The notes under the pieces: model-generated | The model's database searches: none | Seen by the model: only the letters and a program-made list of their open reading frames with translations | Told to the model about the DNA's origin: nothing | Position numbers and translations under genes: made by a program | Shown: positions 12,419 to 62,840 of the stretch, one piece after another | How the letters are laid out: each line of letters opens with the position of its first letter | Position numbering within the stretch: the first letter of the stretch is position 1 | NCBI RefSeq assembly: GCF_057098645.1 | Contig: NZ_CM169472.1 | Strand: one strand, 5' to 3' | DNA length: 64,000 nucleotides

Positions 12419-13231
12419 TCAGCACTCAACAAACTGATGCTGTTCATTAAGACGATAGCGGACTCCGGCTCGAATATTGTTTTCACCTTCAATGGCGACG
12501 GCGAAACGAACTCTTTCGCCGTCATGATATGCCAGTGCGGCGCTTCCTCCTGGCCCGAGAATAATTGAGTCGACCACGCCCGTGCTCACTACCGTTGAAT
12601 TTTCACCGCTGGCAATGATGTGTACATTGTCGCCGCTGTTGGCAATTCTGGCGTTTGCGCCAAAGCTGGCGATTTGCACCAGGTCACCATTACTAGCGAC
12701 ATGACATCGTTCACCCAATGTACAAACGCGTACTCGCATTCCGGTATTCGCAATCCGACTGCTATCTCCAGCGCTGCTTATCCGCGAAGAATTGCCGGTT
12801 ACAGCAACCCGTGCGCGCTCACCGGAGCTGCCAATGTGACTGTTAAAGCCGACACTTCCAATCCGCACGCTATAACCCATACTGGCAATTTGTGCAGCAT
12901 ACCCAGCGGTTGCGATTCTGGCGTTATCCTCACAACAGCCGATGCGAGCATGATCGTCGCTGCGGGCAAACTGACTGCAAAATGGTATCTCTCCGGGGTC
13001 TGTGGCCAGTTTTTGCATAGAGGAAACTTCCTGATGCGCGAAGTTTTCATCCGCCAGCCATTTTTTCCACGCATACTCAACCAGACTCTCCGCCCAGTCC
13101 GTATATCCTTCCTCAATCAGTGCATGATGAATATCGGCATAACTACCGCCGCGTGGGAAATGGCGCAGGAACCAGCGATACATCACCGCTCCGATACGCC
13201 ATTCTCGCAGGTCTGCTCGTGTAATGATCAT
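12419..13231 (-). CDS. ydhT: Uncharacterized protein YdhT (9-residue tandem repeat protein)
   Basis: 270-aa ORF; last gene of the ydhVWXUT cluster. Confidence 0.85.
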   Translation of the reverse strand: MIITRADLREWRIGAVMYRWFLRHFPRGGSYADIHHALIEEGYTDWAESLVEYAWKKWLADENFAHQEVSSMQKLATDPGEIPFCSQFARSDDHARIGCCEDNARIATAGYAAQIASMGYSVRIGSVGFNSHIGSSGERARVAVTGNSSRISSAGDSSRIANTGMRVRVCTLGERCHVASNGDLVQIASFGANARIANSGDNVHIIASGENSTVVSTGVVDSIILGPGGSAALAYHDGERVRFAVAIEGENNIRAGVRYRLNEQHQFVEC

Positions 13232-21129: not shown

Positions 21130-21161
21130 AAAAATGGCGCACATTGTGCGCCATTTTTTTG
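21130..21161. terminator. Bidirectional rho-independent terminator shared by convergent lpp and ldtE
   Basis: AAAAATGGCGCACA-tt-GTGCGCCATTTTTTT, with an A-run on one side and a T-run on the other. Confidence 0.8.
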
Positions 21162-33647: not shown

Positions 33648-33674
33648 ATCAGGCGGCTCTGCCGCCTGATTGTT
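33648..33674 (+). terminator. Rho-independent terminator after ydiK
   Basis: ATCAGGCGG-ctct-GCCGCCTGAT followed by TGTT. Confidence 0.55.
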
Positions 33675-33826: not shown

Positions 33827-33931
33827 ACGGTTATAAATCAACATATTGATTTATAAGCATGGAAATCCCCTGAGTGAAACAACGAATTGCTGTGTGTAGT
33901 CTTTGCCCATCTCCCACGATGGGCTTTTTTT
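33827..33931 (+). ncRNA. rprA: Small regulatory RNA RprA
   Basis: ACGGTTATAAATCAACATATTGATTTATAAGCATGGAAATCCCCTGAGTGAAACAACGAATTGCTGTGTGTAGTCTTTGCCCATCTCCCACGATGGGCTTTTTTT recognised as RprA, ending in a terminator hairpin and T-run. Confidence 0.9.
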
Positions 33932-48196: not shown

Positions 48197-50568
48197 TTCA
48201 GTTCAGCCAGGCTTAACCAGGTTTGCACCACGGTGTCCGGATTCAGAGACAGGCTATCGATCCCCTCTTCCATCAACCATGCGGCAAAGTCTTCGTGGTC
48301 GGACGGACCCTGACCGCAAATCCCGACATATTTGCCCTGTTTCTTCGCGGCACGGATAGCCATCGACAGCAGTGCTTTCACCGCATCGTTGCGCTCATCG
48401 AACAATTCAGACACCACGCCGGAGTCACGGTCCAGACCGAGCGCCAGCTGCGTCATATCGTTTGAGCCAATTGAGAAGCCGTCGAAATATTCGAGGAACT
48501 GCTCGGCCAGCAAGGCGTTGGACGGGATTTCACACATCATGATGATTTTCAGCCCGTTCTCGCCACGTTTCAGCCCCTGACGCGCCAGTTCTTCAACCAC
48601 CGCTTTCGCCTGATCTACGGTACGCACGAACGGGATCATGATCTCAACGTTGGTCAGCCCCATGTCGTTGCGCACACGTTTCACTGCTTCACACTCCAGC
48701 GCGAAACAGTCGCGGAAGCTGTCGGAAACATAGCGGCCCGCGCCACGGAAGCCGAGCATCGGGTTCTCTTCATCTGGCTCGTAACGCTCACCACCGACCA
48801 GGTTGGCATATTCGTTCGATTTAAAATCAGAGAGACGGACAATGACGCGCTTCGGATAAAACGCGGCACCCAGCGTCGCGATCCCTTCAGTCAGACGACC
48901 AACGTAAAATTCACGCGGAGAATCAAAACCTTTCATCATCTCGCGGATTTCGTTTTGCAACTGCGGTTCCTGATCGTCAAACTCAAGCAGTGCGCGTGGG
49001 TGGACGCCAATCATACGGTTGATGATAAATTCCAGACGCGCAAGTCCCACGCCTTCGTTCGGCAGACAGGCGAAGTCGAAAGCTCGGTCCGGGTTACCGA
49101 CGTTCATCATCACTTTCAACGGCAGATCCGGCATCGTTTCTACGCTGGAGCTTTTCACGCTAAATTCCAGCAACTCCGCATAGACGTAACCGGTATCACC
49201 TTCGGCACAAGAAACAGTGACGTTCTCACCGTCTTTCATCCGTTCTGTTGCATCACCACAGCCCACTACCGCCGGAATGCCCAGTTCACGAGCGATGATC
49301 GCCGCGTGACAGGTACGACCGCCACGGTTGGTGACGATGGCAGATGCTTTCTTCATGATCGGTTCCCAGTCCGGGTCGGTCATGTCAGTGACCAGCACGT
49401 CACCAGGTTCGATGCGGTTCATTTCGCTGATATCATGGATGACTTTCACCGGACCCGCACCGATGCGATGACCGATAGCACGGCCTTCGGCGATAATCTT
49501 ACCCTGTGAATGCAGCGTATAACGCTCCATGACCTGACCGCGTGAGCGCACGGTTTCCGGACGCGCCTGCACAATGAACAGTTTACCGGTGTGGCCATCT
49601 TTCGCCCACTCAATATCCATCGGGCGACCGTAGTGTTTCTCAATTTGTACGGCCTGTTTTGCCAGTTCCTGCACTTCTTCGTTGGTCAGCGAGAAGATGT
49701 CACGCTGTTCCTGCGGTACGTCTTCGATTTTAACCTGCTTGCCGTGCTCCTGGGTCGGCGCGTAAACCATGCGGATTTTTTTCGACCCCATGGTGCGGCG
49801 CACGATAGCCGGGCGATTCGCCGCCAGTGTCGGTTTATGCACGTAAAACTCATCCGGGTTAACCGCACCCTGCACGACCATCTCACCAAGGCCCCATGCG
49901 GATGTGATAAACACCACCTGGTCAAAGCCGGATTCGGTATCAATGGAGAACATCACGCCAGATGATGCGAGGTCAGAGCGCACCATCCGTTGAACACCGG
50001 CGGAGAGCGCCACACCACGGTGATCGTAACCCTGGTGCACACGATAAGAGATGGCGCGATCGTTAAACAGAGAAGCAAATACATGTTTCACTGCCACGAG
50101 AACGGCGTCAAAACCCTGAACGTTGAGGAAGGTTTCCTGCTGACCGGCAAAAGAAGCGTCCGGCATATCTTCTGCGGTGGCGGAGGAGCGCACCGCAAAA
50201 GAGGCATTTTCGTCATCAGCGGAAAGCTGTGCATAGGCTTCTCGGATGGCGTTTTCCAGCTCAGGCTGGAAGGGAGTGTCGATAATCCACTGGCGGATTT
50301 GCGCGCCCGCTTTCGCAAGCTGAGTAACATCGTCAATATCCGTTTTATCCAGCAGTTCATAAATGCGCTGGTTTACGCCGCTTTGGTCCAGAAACTGGTT
50401 AAACGCGTCGGCGGTTGTGGCGAAACCATTCGGAACGGAAACACCCATTCCGGAAAGGTTAGTAATCATTTCACCCAGGGAGGCATTTTTGCCCCCAACC
50501 CTGTCTACATCATTCATGCCGAGTTGGTTATACCAAAGCACCAGCGGTGACGAGCCATTGTTGGACAT
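48190..50568 (-). CDS. ppsA: Phosphoenolpyruvate synthase
   Basis: 792-aa [37 protein letters not shown]... Confidence 0.97.
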
Positions 50569-50654
50569 CGAACAATCCTTTTGTGATAAATGAACGGTTT
50601 GAGAAACACATTTCTGCGCATTTATCTTTGCATATTTAACCGGATGAAAAAAAC

Positions 50655-50670
50655 GGTGAATCGTTCAAGC
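50655..50670. promoter_or_regulatory. Candidate Cra (FruR) activator site upstream of ppsA
   Basis: GGTGAATCGTTCAAGC resembles the Cra half-site palindrome; ppsA is a known Cra-activated gene. Confidence 0.45.
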
Positions 50671-50900
50671 AAATATATTTTTTTACTTTTTAAGACTGAT
50701 CCCAGCGTTGCGCAAATCTGCTCTCTTCGACAATTTCCACATAAACCATCGGTATAAACGAAACCATAAAAATGAAATGCTGTTTTCATAAAAAATAAAA
50801 TTGAAGGTTCATTTTATAAACCAGACATAACGTTCTACGCTTCTGTGCGTTTTTAATTTATGCTTTCATAGAATTATGTCTGCATCACGGGAAGAACAAA

Positions 50901-51734
50901 ATGGATAATGCTGTTGATCGCCACGTTTTTTATATTTCTGATGGTACGGCAATAACTGCGGAGGTATTAGGACACGCAGTAATGTCACAATTTCCCGTCA
51001 CTATCAGCAGCATCACGCTGCCGTTTGTCGAAAATGAGAGCCGTGCACGGGCAGTGAAGGATCAGATTGACGCAATTTATCACCAGACAGGCGTGCGCCC
51101 GCTGGTCTTCTACTCCATCGTGTTGCCGGAGATTCGCGCCATCATCTTGCAAAGTGAAGGCTTTTGCCAGGATATCGTTCAGGCGCTGGTTGCCCCGCTA
51201 CAACAAGAGATGAAACTGGATCCAACGCCGATTGCTCATCGTACCCATGGCCTTAACCCTAATAATCTCAATAAATATGATGCGCGCATTGCGGCGATTG
51301 ATTACACCCTCGCCCACGATGACGGCATTTCGTTGCGCAATCTGGATCAGGCTCAGGTGATCCTGCTCGGTGTTTCTCGCTGTGGTAAAACCCCCACCAG
51401 TCTGTATCTGGCAATGCAATTTGGTATCCGCGCGGCAAACTACCCCTTTATTGCCGACGATATGGATAATCTGGTGCTACCCGCGTCGCTCAAACCGCTT
51501 CAGCATAAATTGTTCGGCCTGACTATCGACCCGGAACGTCTGGCGGCGATTCGCGAGGAACGTCGGGAGAACAGTCGCTATGCCTCGCTTCGTCAGTGCA
51601 GGATGGAAGTCGCGGAAGTGGAAGCCTTGTACCGTAAAAATCAGATCCCGTGGATTAACAGTACCAATTATTCGGTAGAAGAGATTGCCACCAAGATCCT
51701 CGATATCATGGGCCTTAGTCGCCGAATGTACTAG
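50901..51734 (+). CDS. ppsR: PEP synthase regulatory protein PpsR (bifunctional kinase/pyrophosphorylase)
   Basis: 277-aa ORF with P-loop GVSRCGKT. Confidence 0.95.
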
Positions 51735-51746
51735 AGAACTAGTGCA
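51727..51746. promoter_or_regulatory. TrpR operator at the aroH promoter
   Basis: TGTACTAGAGAACTAGTGCA matches the GTACTAG...AACTAGT Trp operator palindrome; aroH is a known TrpR target. Confidence 0.55.
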
Positions 51747-51890
51747 TTAGCTTATTTTTTTGTTATCATGCTAACCACCCGGCGAGGTGTGACACACCTC
51801 GCACTTGAAATCAGCAGCGATTGGTTTATCGTGATGCGCATCACTTCCCGGCAGTCCTGCCGTAGAAGCAACAAATTTCTGAGACTTGTA

Positions 51891-52937
51891 ATGAACAGAA
51901 CTGACGAACTCCGTACTGCGCGTATTGAGAGCCTGGTAACGCCCGCCGAACTCGCGCTACGGTATCCCGTAACGCCTGGCGTCGCCACCCATGTCACCGA
52001 CTCCCGCCGCAGAATTGAAAAAATACTGAATGGTGAAGATAAGCGACTGTTGGTCATTATTGGCCCCTGCTCGATCCACGATCTCACCGCTGCAATGGAG
52101 TACGCCACCCGTCTGCAGTCGCTGCGCAACCAGTACCAGTCACGGCTGGAAATCGTAATGCGCACCTATTTTGAAAAACCACGAACTGTTGTCGGCTGGA
52201 AAGGACTAATCTCCGATCCAGATTTAAACGGCAGCTATCGGGTAAATCACGGTCTGGAGCTGGCGCGCAAATTACTTTTACAGGTAAATGAGCTGGGCGT
52301 CCCAACCGCGACTGAGTTCCTCGATATGGTGACCGGTCAGTTTATTGCTGATTTAATCAGTTGGGGCGCGATTGGCGCACGTACTACCGAAAGTCAGATC
52401 CACCGTGAAATGGCTTCGGCACTCTCCTGTCCGGTAGGTTTTAAAAATGGTACCGATGGCAACACGCGGATTGCTGTGGATGCTATCCGCGCAGCCCGCG
52501 CCAGCCATATGTTCCTCTCGCCAGACAAAAATGGTCAGATGACCATCTATCAGACCAGCGGCAACCCGTATGGCCACATTATTATGCGTGGCGGCAAAAA
52601 ACCGAATTATCATGCCGATGATATCGCCGCAGCCTGCGATACACTGCACGAGTTTGATTTACCTGAACATCTGGTGGTGGATTTCAGCCACGGTAACTGC
52701 CAGAAGCAGCACCGTCGCCAGTTAGAAGTTTGTGAGGATATTTGTCAGCAAATCCGCAATGGCTCTACGGCGATTGCTGGAATTATGGCGGAAAGTTTCC
52801 TGCGCGAAGGAACGCAAAAAATCGTCGGCAGTCAGCCGCTCACTTACGGTCAATCCATTACCGACCCGTGTCTGGGCTGGGAAGATACCGAACGCCTGGT
52901 CGAAAAACTCGCCTCTGCGGTAGATACCCGCTTCTGA
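51891..52937 (+). CDS. aroH: DAHP synthase, Trp-sensitive
   Basis: 348-aa ORF from MNRTDELRTARIESLVTPAEL...; upstream in-frame extension rejected. Confidence 0.96.
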   Translation: MNRTDELRTARIESLVTPAELALRYPVTPGVATHVTDSRRRIEKILNGEDKRLLVIIGPCSIHDLTAAMEYATRLQSLRNQYQSRLEIVMRTYFEKPRTVVGWKGLISDPDLNGSYRVNHGLELARKLLLQVNELGVPTATEFLDMVTGQFIADLISWGAIGARTTESQIHREMASALSCPVGFKNGTDGNTRIAVDAIRAARASHMFLSPDKNGQMTIYQTSGNPYGHIIMRGGKKPNYHADDIAAACDTLHEFDLPEHLVVDFSHGNCQKQHRRQLEVCEDICQQIRNGSTAIAGIMAESFLREGTQKIVGSQPLTYGQSITDPCLGWEDTERLVEKLASAVDTRF

Positions 52938-53068
52938 ATGCGTGCCCATTCCTGATGGGATGGGCATTTCTGCGCAACTTGTTGTCTTCTCAACACATTA
53001 CTGCTTGCTCTGGTCAGCTATAATATTGATAATAAGAATCATTGTTATATCAATTATTATTAATTTTT

Positions 53069-53260
53069 ATGCGTTATACGGATAGCAGAAAACTCACGCC
53101 TGAAACGGATGCCAATCACAAGACCGCTTCCCCGCAGCCTATTCGGCGAATTTCCAGCCAGACACTGTTAGGTCCGGATGGCAAACTGATTATCGATCAT
53201 GACGGGCAAGAATATCTGCTCCGTAAAACTCAGGCTGGCAAGCTGCTGTTGACCAAGTAG
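53069..53260 (+). CDS. ydiE: HemP-like small protein YdiE
   Basis: 63-aa [21 protein letters not shown]... Confidence 0.8.
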
Positions 53261-53263
53261 CCT

Positions 53264-54739
<1,476 letters not shown>

Positions 54740-55476: not shown

Positions 55477-55722
55477 GGTAACCGTCCCTCTCGAAGGATG
55501 TTTTTCAGTATCCGGCTAAAAGGGATGAGACCATAAGACATAACAATTACAGAAGGAGTAACTTTCATTTGTTCCATGTTAACCACTTTTTCAGGGGTCC
55601 TTTTTTTAGATTATCCTGATTATAAACGAATAATCCATTTACGGAATTTTTGTCTGCAAAATACTACTGTATTCTGGAGTAAATGGACGGCGATGTATCA
55701 TCGCCGTCCAATTTTCGACATA

Positions 55723-58670: not shown

Positions 58671-58696
58671 AAAAAAGGCCGCAGAGCGGCCTTTTT
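58671..58696 (-). terminator. Rho-independent terminator after ihfA
   Basis: On the minus strand GGCCGC-tct-GCGGCC followed by TTTTTT. Confidence 0.7.
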
Positions 58697-62811: not shown

Positions 62812-62840
62812 CGAAAAGAGGGAGACTAGCTCCCTCTTTC
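62812..62840 (-). terminator. Terminator after rplT
   Basis: On the minus strand AAAGAGGGAG-ctag-TCTCCCTCTTTTCGTTTC. Confidence 0.6.

Follow-up and report, generated by a model that had tools for sequence, protein, structure and literature searches.

The best-supported outcome of our analysis is that the perfect palindrome lying between the two tandem promoters of aroH appears to be selected as a hairpin in the transcript initiated at the upstream promoter, aroHp1, as judged from comparison of sequences between genera. We propose that it is a structured element close to the 5' end of the TrpR-controlled transcript, which it probably stabilises, and that in Escherichia and Salmonella it doubles as a predicted secondary CRP site; we would give this combined proposal about an even chance of being correct. 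The palindrome itself is real and under selection. It is a modest regulatory detail, probably one that has gone undescribed, and not a new kind of system.

The analysed DNA, referred to below as the window, is a stretch of 64,000 nucleotides of Escherichia coli DNA from contig NZ_CM169472.1 (RefSeq assembly GCF_057098645.1). In its coordinates, the region is organised as follows.

48190-50568, minus strand: ppsA, from the gene layout
50901-51734, plus strand: ppsR coding sequence, the upstream neighbour of aroH
51728-51745, plus strand: TrpR operator core GTACTAGAGAACTAGTGC, conserved in Enterobacteriaceae alignments
51764-51769, plus strand: -10 element TATCAT of aroHp1, the TrpR-controlled upstream promoter; conserved as TATCAT, TATTAT or TATGAT
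51782-51802, plus strand: the palindrome (RNA stem-loop), at +9 to +29 of the aroHp1 transcript and -58 to -38 from the aroHp2 start
51805-51832, plus strand: aroHp2 as found in the promoter scan, with -35 TTGAAA (51805-51810), a 16-bp spacer and -10 TATCGT (51827-51832)
51845-51869, plus strand: second hairpin, CUUCC-CGGCA-GUCC-UGCCG-UA-GAAG, common to both transcripts, from the leader fold
51891-52937, plus strand: aroH coding sequence, Trp-sensitive DAHP synthase of 348 aa

A perfect palindrome with 10-bp arms, located 3' of the TrpR operator and promoter and 5' of the aroH start codon, was the core of the original prediction, and it was confirmed in all these respects. The left arm GCGAGGTGTG (51782-51791) and the right arm CACACCTCGC (51793-51802) are exact reverse complements separated by a single A (51792), and the element is placed between the operator (51728-51745) and the ATG at 51891. 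As had also been stated, no T-tract comes after it: the next bases are ACTTGAAATCAGC, and the 3' flank reads ACTTGAAATC.

Perfect arms of at least 10 bp with a loop of at most 8 are found at only 8 distinct loci in the window (15 nested hits), while first-order Markov simulations of the window produced 0.6 hits on average and never more than 3 in 60 runs. The remaining seven palindromes of this kind are located at 12497-12523, 21131-21157, 33648-33670, 33831-33856, 55684-55710, 58672-58696 and 62815-62839; several of them lie between runs of A and T and resemble intrinsic terminators working in both directions. When up to 3 mismatches were allowed, no second copy of the 21-mer was found in the window (0 expected), and the 41-bp palindrome region mapped to a median of one place per genome in a sensitive blastn search of 5,422 E. 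coli genomes. A repeat family (REP/BIME, ERIC and similar) was therefore ruled out, the palindrome being single-copy both per genome and in the window. A scan of 50500-53400 on both strands with Rfam 15 returned no covariance-model match at E<=1. Within E. coli the element is nearly fixed. The 201-bp stretch around it is present at 95-100% identity in 5,422 of 5,426 complete genomes, in the annotated ppsR-aroH spacer, and the 41 bp around the palindrome are at least 99% identical in 5261 of 5422. Six divergent strains showed an invariant palindrome and a variable spacer between the operator and the -10 element.

Interpretation of the palindrome depends on where transcription of aroH begins. 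The gene is under the control of TrpR and is not known to be subject to attenuation, and the sequence at 51728-51745 is what we take, from established knowledge of the TrpR regulon, to be its operator. The -35 region of aroHp1 lies inside this operator, and the stop codon of ppsR (TAG, 51732-51734) is likewise situated within its core. The operator palindrome followed by TTATTTTTTT resembled an intrinsic terminator in our scan (51725-51762), and in E. coli the operator may double as a ppsR terminator hairpin; the T-run 3' of it is present in Escherichia and Salmonella, not in Enterobacter.

The promoter starts were back-calculated from two recent supplements. A 2022 preprint, in which the promoters are named aroHp1 and aroHp2, gives guide-RNA sites and distances from their PAM-proximal ends to the starts (bioRxiv 10.1101/2022.07.14.500123, Table S3). 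Mapped onto the window, these distances place the aroHp1 start at 51773/51774, an indirect value with an uncertainty of ±1 nt, and the aroHp2 start at 51839/51840, 66 bp further 3'. In the second source (PMC11878033, 2025, Tables S3/S4) the aroH 5' UTR was taken as 51 nt beginning with ATCACTTCC, that is at window position 51840, and thus a start of aroHp2 near 51840 is backed by both. The leader is about 117 nt long when transcription begins at aroHp1 and 51 nt when it begins at aroHp2. Since the palindrome lies between the two starts, it is transcribed from aroHp1 only. Its earlier description as part of the aroH leader is thus correct for aroHp1 transcripts and does not apply to aroHp2, for which it is promoter-upstream DNA, the -35 element of aroHp2 beginning 3 bp after the palindrome ends.

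Upstream of the annotated ATG, no stop codon interrupts the aroH frame for 41 codons, counted from another ATG at 51768 (51768-51890); a stop-free run of this length has a chance probability of about 0.14, and the extension is probably meaningless, as the ATG at 51768 is upstream of the aroHp1 start. Control of aroH by the GcvB sRNA was rejected: no significant regulation was reported, with a fusion devoid of the palindrome (PMC11878033).

Folding of the aroH 5' UTR, one of the checks proposed together with the original prediction, recovered the palindrome stem-loop in both the MFE and the centroid structure. As a loop of 1 nt cannot close in RNA, the predicted hairpin consists of a 9-bp stem and a UGA loop, with a free energy of -14.2 kcal/mol alone and -15.6 kcal/mol in context. 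Eight unpaired nucleotides separate the aroHp1 start (~51774) from the stem (51782). An effect of the hairpin on translation, raised earlier as one of its potential roles, is unlikely, the distance to the ribosome-binding site being about 90 nt; no pairing to that site was obvious by eye. The SD/anti-SD-like content of the arms (GAGGUG/CACCUC) was dropped as an explanation because Enterobacter-type stems lack it. The second hairpin of the leader (51845-51869), placed 3' of the aroHp2 start, is highly conserved in sequence across Enterobacterales and shows few G·U or compensatory variants, and Proteus, Providencia and Moellerella carry a different sequence at its position.

The evidence which bears most directly on the function of the palindrome comes from comparison of aroH upstream regions, taken from 80 species-level genomes and from further contigs reached through AroH homologues. 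In 14 sequences representing seven genera, namely Escherichia, Salmonella (enterica, salamae, arizonae), Enterobacter, Lelliottia, Huaxiibacter, Pseudenterobacter and Leclercia, the interval between the aroHp1 -10 and the aroHp2 -35 elements (the slot, 32-35 nt) has a common layout: 10-12 unpaired nucleotides, a hairpin of -13 to -16 kcal/mol, 1-4 nt and then TTGAAA. Four types of stem occupy this slot.

E. coli and Salmonella type: left GCGAGGTGTG, right CACACCTCGC
Enterobacter group type: left TCGGGGCG, right CGCCCCGA
Pseudenterobacter type: left GCGGAGCG, right CGCTCCGC
Leclercia type: left CAGGGCAC, right GTGCCCTG

The stem sequences differ between genera, with compensatory changes and G·U pairs. 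As the hairpin and its position are conserved while the sequence is not, the element would be expected to act as RNA, and the pattern suggests that RNA structure is what has been selected. In 11 of the 14 sequences, dinucleotide shuffling of the segment gave p values of 0.001-0.02, the exceptions being S. arizonae (0.09), E. cloacae (0.13) and E. albertii (0.82). The hairpin of S. enterica differs by one A>G change, which converts a U-A pair into U·G; such a pair is tolerated in RNA, whereas in a DNA palindrome it is a mismatch, and the change hints at a role as RNA. Moreover, E. coli and Salmonella are identical at 20 of 21 positions of the hairpin and at only 5 of 12 in the nucleotides just 5' of it (Fisher p=0.0012).

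A plain MAFFT alignment proved unsuitable for the analysis of covariation, as stems of different hairpin types were mis-registered in it, and a covariance model built from the Escherichia and Salmonella sequences (Infernal) was used to align all 14 instead. In this alignment, which is fitted to the structure and hence inflates pairing, so that its values are support and not proof, 90.6% of the cells are paired, double-sided changes are found in 7 of the 10 pairs, and the covariation score is 0.300, as compared to 0.128 ± 0.026 for shuffles (0 of 500 reaching the observed value) and to no more than 0.083 for slid partners. The earlier suggestion of an RNA hairpin is thus supported by conservation of structure, with compensatory changes, across genera.

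Not all relatives have the hairpin, however. In E. albertii it is degenerate (-6 to -7.5 kcal/mol, p=0.8), and it is absent from the slot in Klebsiella oxytoca, Kosakonia, Pseudocitrobacter and Pluralibacter. Two rearrangements were noted in Citrobacter. In C. youngae (L040, ~2370-2440) a deletion of about 30 bp takes out the palindrome slot together with the aroHp2 -35 element, and in C. freundii (L087, ~330-500) an inserted sequence folds into a hairpin of about 45 nt (-31.8 kcal/mol for the leader fold) which replaces the palindrome hairpin; no recognisable aroHp2 -35 element is present in the latter species. As the hairpin is missing or degenerate in some relatives that have both promoters, it must be regarded as dispensable. 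Conservation across Enterobacteriaceae, which had been named as a check on the palindrome, was therefore found in part: the hairpin and its position are kept in seven genera, but the stem sequence differs between them and several genera have no hairpin there.

The DNA of the palindrome could also be recognised by a protein. Two sequences related to the CRP consensus are located in the spacer.

51788-51803, plus strand: candidate CRP site 1, TGTGA-CACACC-TCGCA, with its centre at 51795.5 (the dyad of the palindrome is at 51792)
51830-51845, plus strand: CRP site 2, CGTGATGCGCATCACT, with its centre at 51837.5, from the motif score and PMC4287617 Table 1

A ChIP-seq study of CRP in ETEC H10407 (Haycocks et al. 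2015, PMC4287617) lists in its Table 1 a high-confidence peak assigned to aroH and, under it, two sites found by MEME. One of them, AGTGATGCGCATCACG, is the reverse complement of 51830-51845 (site 2), and the other, TGCGAGGTGTGTCACA, is the reverse complement of 51788-51803 (site 1), which comprises the apical and right part of the palindrome. When a position weight matrix was derived from the 105 other published sites of that table, site 1 (TGTGACACACCTCGCA) scored 12.9 bits, which equals the training median and ranks fourth among 63,985 window positions, so that it has the strength of a genuine TGTGA-N6-TCACA motif; site 2, with 14.7 bits, ranks first. The tabulated 'peak centre' coordinates require caution. 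Compared with NC_017633.1 (L097-L103), they fall about 189 bp below the motif centres (170-205 in six of six cases), and their reuse needs a correction of this size. The published aroH coordinate corresponds to window position 51626, offset by 169.5 from site 1 and by 211.5 from site 2, and after correction the peak falls midway between the sites, at a resolution of ChIP-seq which cannot separate them. The corrected peak agrees with occupancy of both sites but is no proof of it. The supplement text of a K-12 Crp ChIP-exo study did not contain aroH. Nevertheless, the presence of a CRP motif below a ChIP-seq peak reported for CRP lends support to the view, put forward with the original prediction, that the palindrome might be a protein-binding site.

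The positions of the two sites are informative as to the likely consequence of CRP binding. Site 2 is centred at -2.5 from the aroHp2 start (+64 from aroHp1) and includes the final 3 bases of the aroHp2 -10 element plus the start itself, and thus CRP bound there should repress aroHp2. The centre of site 1, 42 bp away from that of site 2, is at -44.5 from the aroHp2 start and about +22 from the aroHp1 start. This is none of the canonical activating positions (about -41.5, -61.5 and so on), and so repression is the likelier outcome if the site is functional; a class II activator role of site 1 for aroHp2 is unsupported with the centre at -44.5, and repression of aroHp1 would be the simpler reading if CRP occupied this candidate site.

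One might therefore suppose that the palindrome is purely a secondary CRP operator acting at the DNA level, with the hairpin arising as a by-product of an extended palindromic protein site, and that CRP at sites 1 and 2 would repress both aroHp1, as a roadblock at +22, and aroHp2. The score and rank of the site 1 motif would fit this, as would the location of both motifs under the ChIP-seq peak, whose calibrated centre is between them. Strong CRP-like palindromes (15.6-17.9 bits) are also found in the inter-promoter slot of Pluralibacter, Escherichia sp. ESNIH1, Enterobacter sp. ENT03 and Phytobacter, in several cases where the slot has no hairpin of the kind described above. These, however, are separated from site 2 by 48 and not 42 bp, being placed 6 bp further upstream, and no geometry is conserved. 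The symmetry of CRP also does not explain the palindrome, because the two dyads are 3.5 bp apart and GCGAGG (51782-51787), which pairs with CCTCGC, extends outside the left half-site. Furthermore, equally strong hairpins occur in Enterobacter, Lelliottia, Huaxiibacter, Pseudenterobacter and Leclercia, in whose slot no CRP motif was found (scores below 0). The motif of site 1 itself is retained in Salmonella (12.4 bits; 9.3 in arizonae), lost in E. albertii and absent from the Enterobacter group. Taken together, a role confined to CRP binding seems rather unlikely to us, and selection of the hairpin in the aroHp1 transcript is preferred.

As to the downstream promoter, site 2 is found again at about -61 from the ATG in Yersinia, Serratia, Rahnella, Hafnia, Edwardsiella, Proteus, Providencia, Budvicia and Pantoea, and the hexamers of aroHp2 with their exact 16-bp spacing are kept, over a spacer of variable sequence, in Yersinia, Serratia, Rahnella, Hafnia, Edwardsiella, Erwinia, Pantoea, Budvicia, Providencia and Proteus. 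The promoter and the overlapping CRP site (51805-51845) are retained together well outside Enterobacteriaceae, in Yersinia, Serratia, Rahnella, Hafnia, Edwardsiella, Proteus, Providencia and Budvicia. It was mainly within that family that the TrpR operator and aroHp1 could be recognised at the place they occupy in E. coli. aroHp2 is the older feature, and the distribution suggests an ancient aroH promoter controlled by CRP and independent of TrpR. The deeply conserved aroHp2 with its overlapping CRP site is arguably a more notable feature of the spacer than the palindrome.

The proximity of the hairpin to aroHp2 raises another possibility, that in the nascent RNA it pauses or otherwise modulates RNA polymerase arriving from aroHp1 over the aroHp2 core promoter, and that the tandem promoters are coordinated or insulated in this way. 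In every genus that bears the hairpin, 1-4 nt separate its end from the aroHp2 -35 element, and a hairpin-dependent pause about 11 nt downstream would presumably place the polymerase on the -35/-10 region of aroHp2. Nevertheless, the fixed distance follows automatically from the constrained spacing of the two promoters, and a consensus pause signal was looked for and not found; we consider such a function very unlikely.

Even less probable, in our opinion, is that the hairpin defines or stabilises the 3' ends of read-through transcripts from ppsR, or serves as their weak terminator. It begins 48 nt after the ppsR stop codon, and hairpins are found in the ppsR-aroH spacer of several distant genera; yet it has no U-tract, a terminator-like structure (the operator palindrome with its T-run) is already present upstream, and its position tracks the -10 element of aroHp1, at a fixed 10-12 nt, and not the stop codon of ppsR. 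In a Term-seq supplement (PMC7815308) no 3' end was listed for aroH, and the sole entry for ppsR was antisense and far upstream. The original statement that the palindrome is not an obvious terminator stands accordingly, as the terminator scan was also silent there, and an intrinsic terminator or attenuator was ruled out in view of the 3' flank ACUUGAAAUCAGC, devoid of a U-tract.

Finally, a palindrome produced by chance and devoid of function, for which one could invoke its dispensability in E. albertii and Citrobacter youngae, is scarcely credible given its frequency far above the chance expectation in the window, its conservation between E. coli and Salmonella without that of the flank, and the independent hairpins in the same slot of other genera, for which a rough binomial estimate (at least 4 of about 16 sequence types at p<=0.02, the types being counted by eye and their kinship ignored) gives 2.4e-4.

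How, then, might a hairpin selected in the aroHp1 transcript work? Of the two promoters, aroHp1, repressed by TrpR and starting at about 51774, alone transcribes the palindrome, and according to our proposal its RNA would carry a stem-loop of 9-10 bp at +9 to +29 of the leader of about 117 nt. This structure might constitute a barrier close to the 5' end and delay 5'-end-dependent decay of the long transcript, one way being to impede RNase E scanning inwards from that end. Among the roles which may be ascribed to the hairpin, protection from such decay is the one that we favour, although we hold it loosely. The stretch 51788-51803, at the apex and right side of the palindrome, would in Escherichia and Salmonella additionally be read as a CRP site in DNA, probably as the weaker partner of the stronger and ancient site 2 over the -10 element and start of aroHp2, and CRP bound at both sites would most plausibly exert repression and not activation.

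A bolder version of this scheme can be formulated, which we regard as doubtful. A single element of 21 bp might be read twice, as a CRP operator in the DNA between tandem promoters and as a protective hairpin in the RNA of the upstream promoter only, and among Enterobacteriaceae the slot might have switched between three states, namely a palindromic CRP site (TGTGATGCGCATCACA types), a hairpin of pure GC kind (Enterobacter types) and the hybrid of Escherichia and Salmonella. Because a palindrome bound by a protein dimer is already a hairpin, functions of a protein site and of an RNA structure could be exchanged by few compensatory substitutions.

aroH is a classic representative of the TrpR regulon and is commonly engineered in strains meant to produce aromatic amino acids. 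If the hairpin indeed tunes the stability of the TrpR-regulated transcript, it would offer a simple handle on aroH expression that leaves the operator untouched. If CRP binds both sites, entry into the shikimate pathway would be tied to carbon status, which is of relevance as phosphoenolpyruvate is a substrate and ppsA and ppsR adjoin aroH; such a link was not found in the literature searched. The conserved aroHp2 with its overlapping CRP site may prove to be the more important feature. The overlap of the palindrome with a predicted CRP site has already been published, as one row of a table (PMC4287617). This ETEC ChIP-seq table was the only place in the literature where the sequence of the hairpin or palindrome was found, and our search for CRP control of aroH likewise returned nothing beyond that row. 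In the same literature we found no description of the conservation of the hairpin structure or of its placement between aroHp1 and aroHp2, nor any experiment on the hairpin.

Among known systems, terminator and attenuator hairpins of the trp leader kind resemble the aroH element in that a perfect GC-rich stem is found in the leader of a gene regulated by tryptophan. The aroH leader differs from them in the lack of a U-tract, and no obvious alternative antiterminator pairing is seen in its fold. Another analogy is provided by tandem CRP sites acting as repressor or roadblock elements, positioned over the -10 element and start of a promoter or just 3' of the start. The shared features are the half-sites TGTGA-N6-TC(A/G)CA, a published in vivo CRP peak assigned to the region, the 42-bp spacing (four helical turns) and the location of site 2 over the -10 element and start of aroHp2. 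The candidate site 1, on the other hand, lies at -44.5 from aroHp2 and +22 from aroHp1, neither a canonical class I nor a class II position, and the motif is missing from the Enterobacter-type hairpins in the slot.

The stabilising stem-loops of the ompA/papA type in 5' UTRs, and obstacles to RNase E scanning, resemble the aroH element in placing a stable, GC-rich hairpin close to the start of a long leader, here 3' of the aroHp1 start, with no U-tract and no involvement of the ribosome-binding site, and in the conservation of structure over sequence, which for aroH is expressed by compensatory changes in 7 of 10 pairs of the structure-fitted alignment. The aroH element differs from them in that its DNA is at the same time the upstream region of a second promoter and contains a CRP motif. 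In classic protective hairpins of the ompA type, no more than 2-4 nt may precede the stem, whereas the aroH hairpin is preceded by about 8 unpaired nucleotides, counted from a database start that is indirect and uncertain by ±1 nt. The simplest stabiliser model therefore fits poorly, but a barrier to RNase E scanning would still be compatible with a gap of 8 nt. By these comparisons, the element works like a structural element of the 5' UTR and, in part, like a CRP operator.
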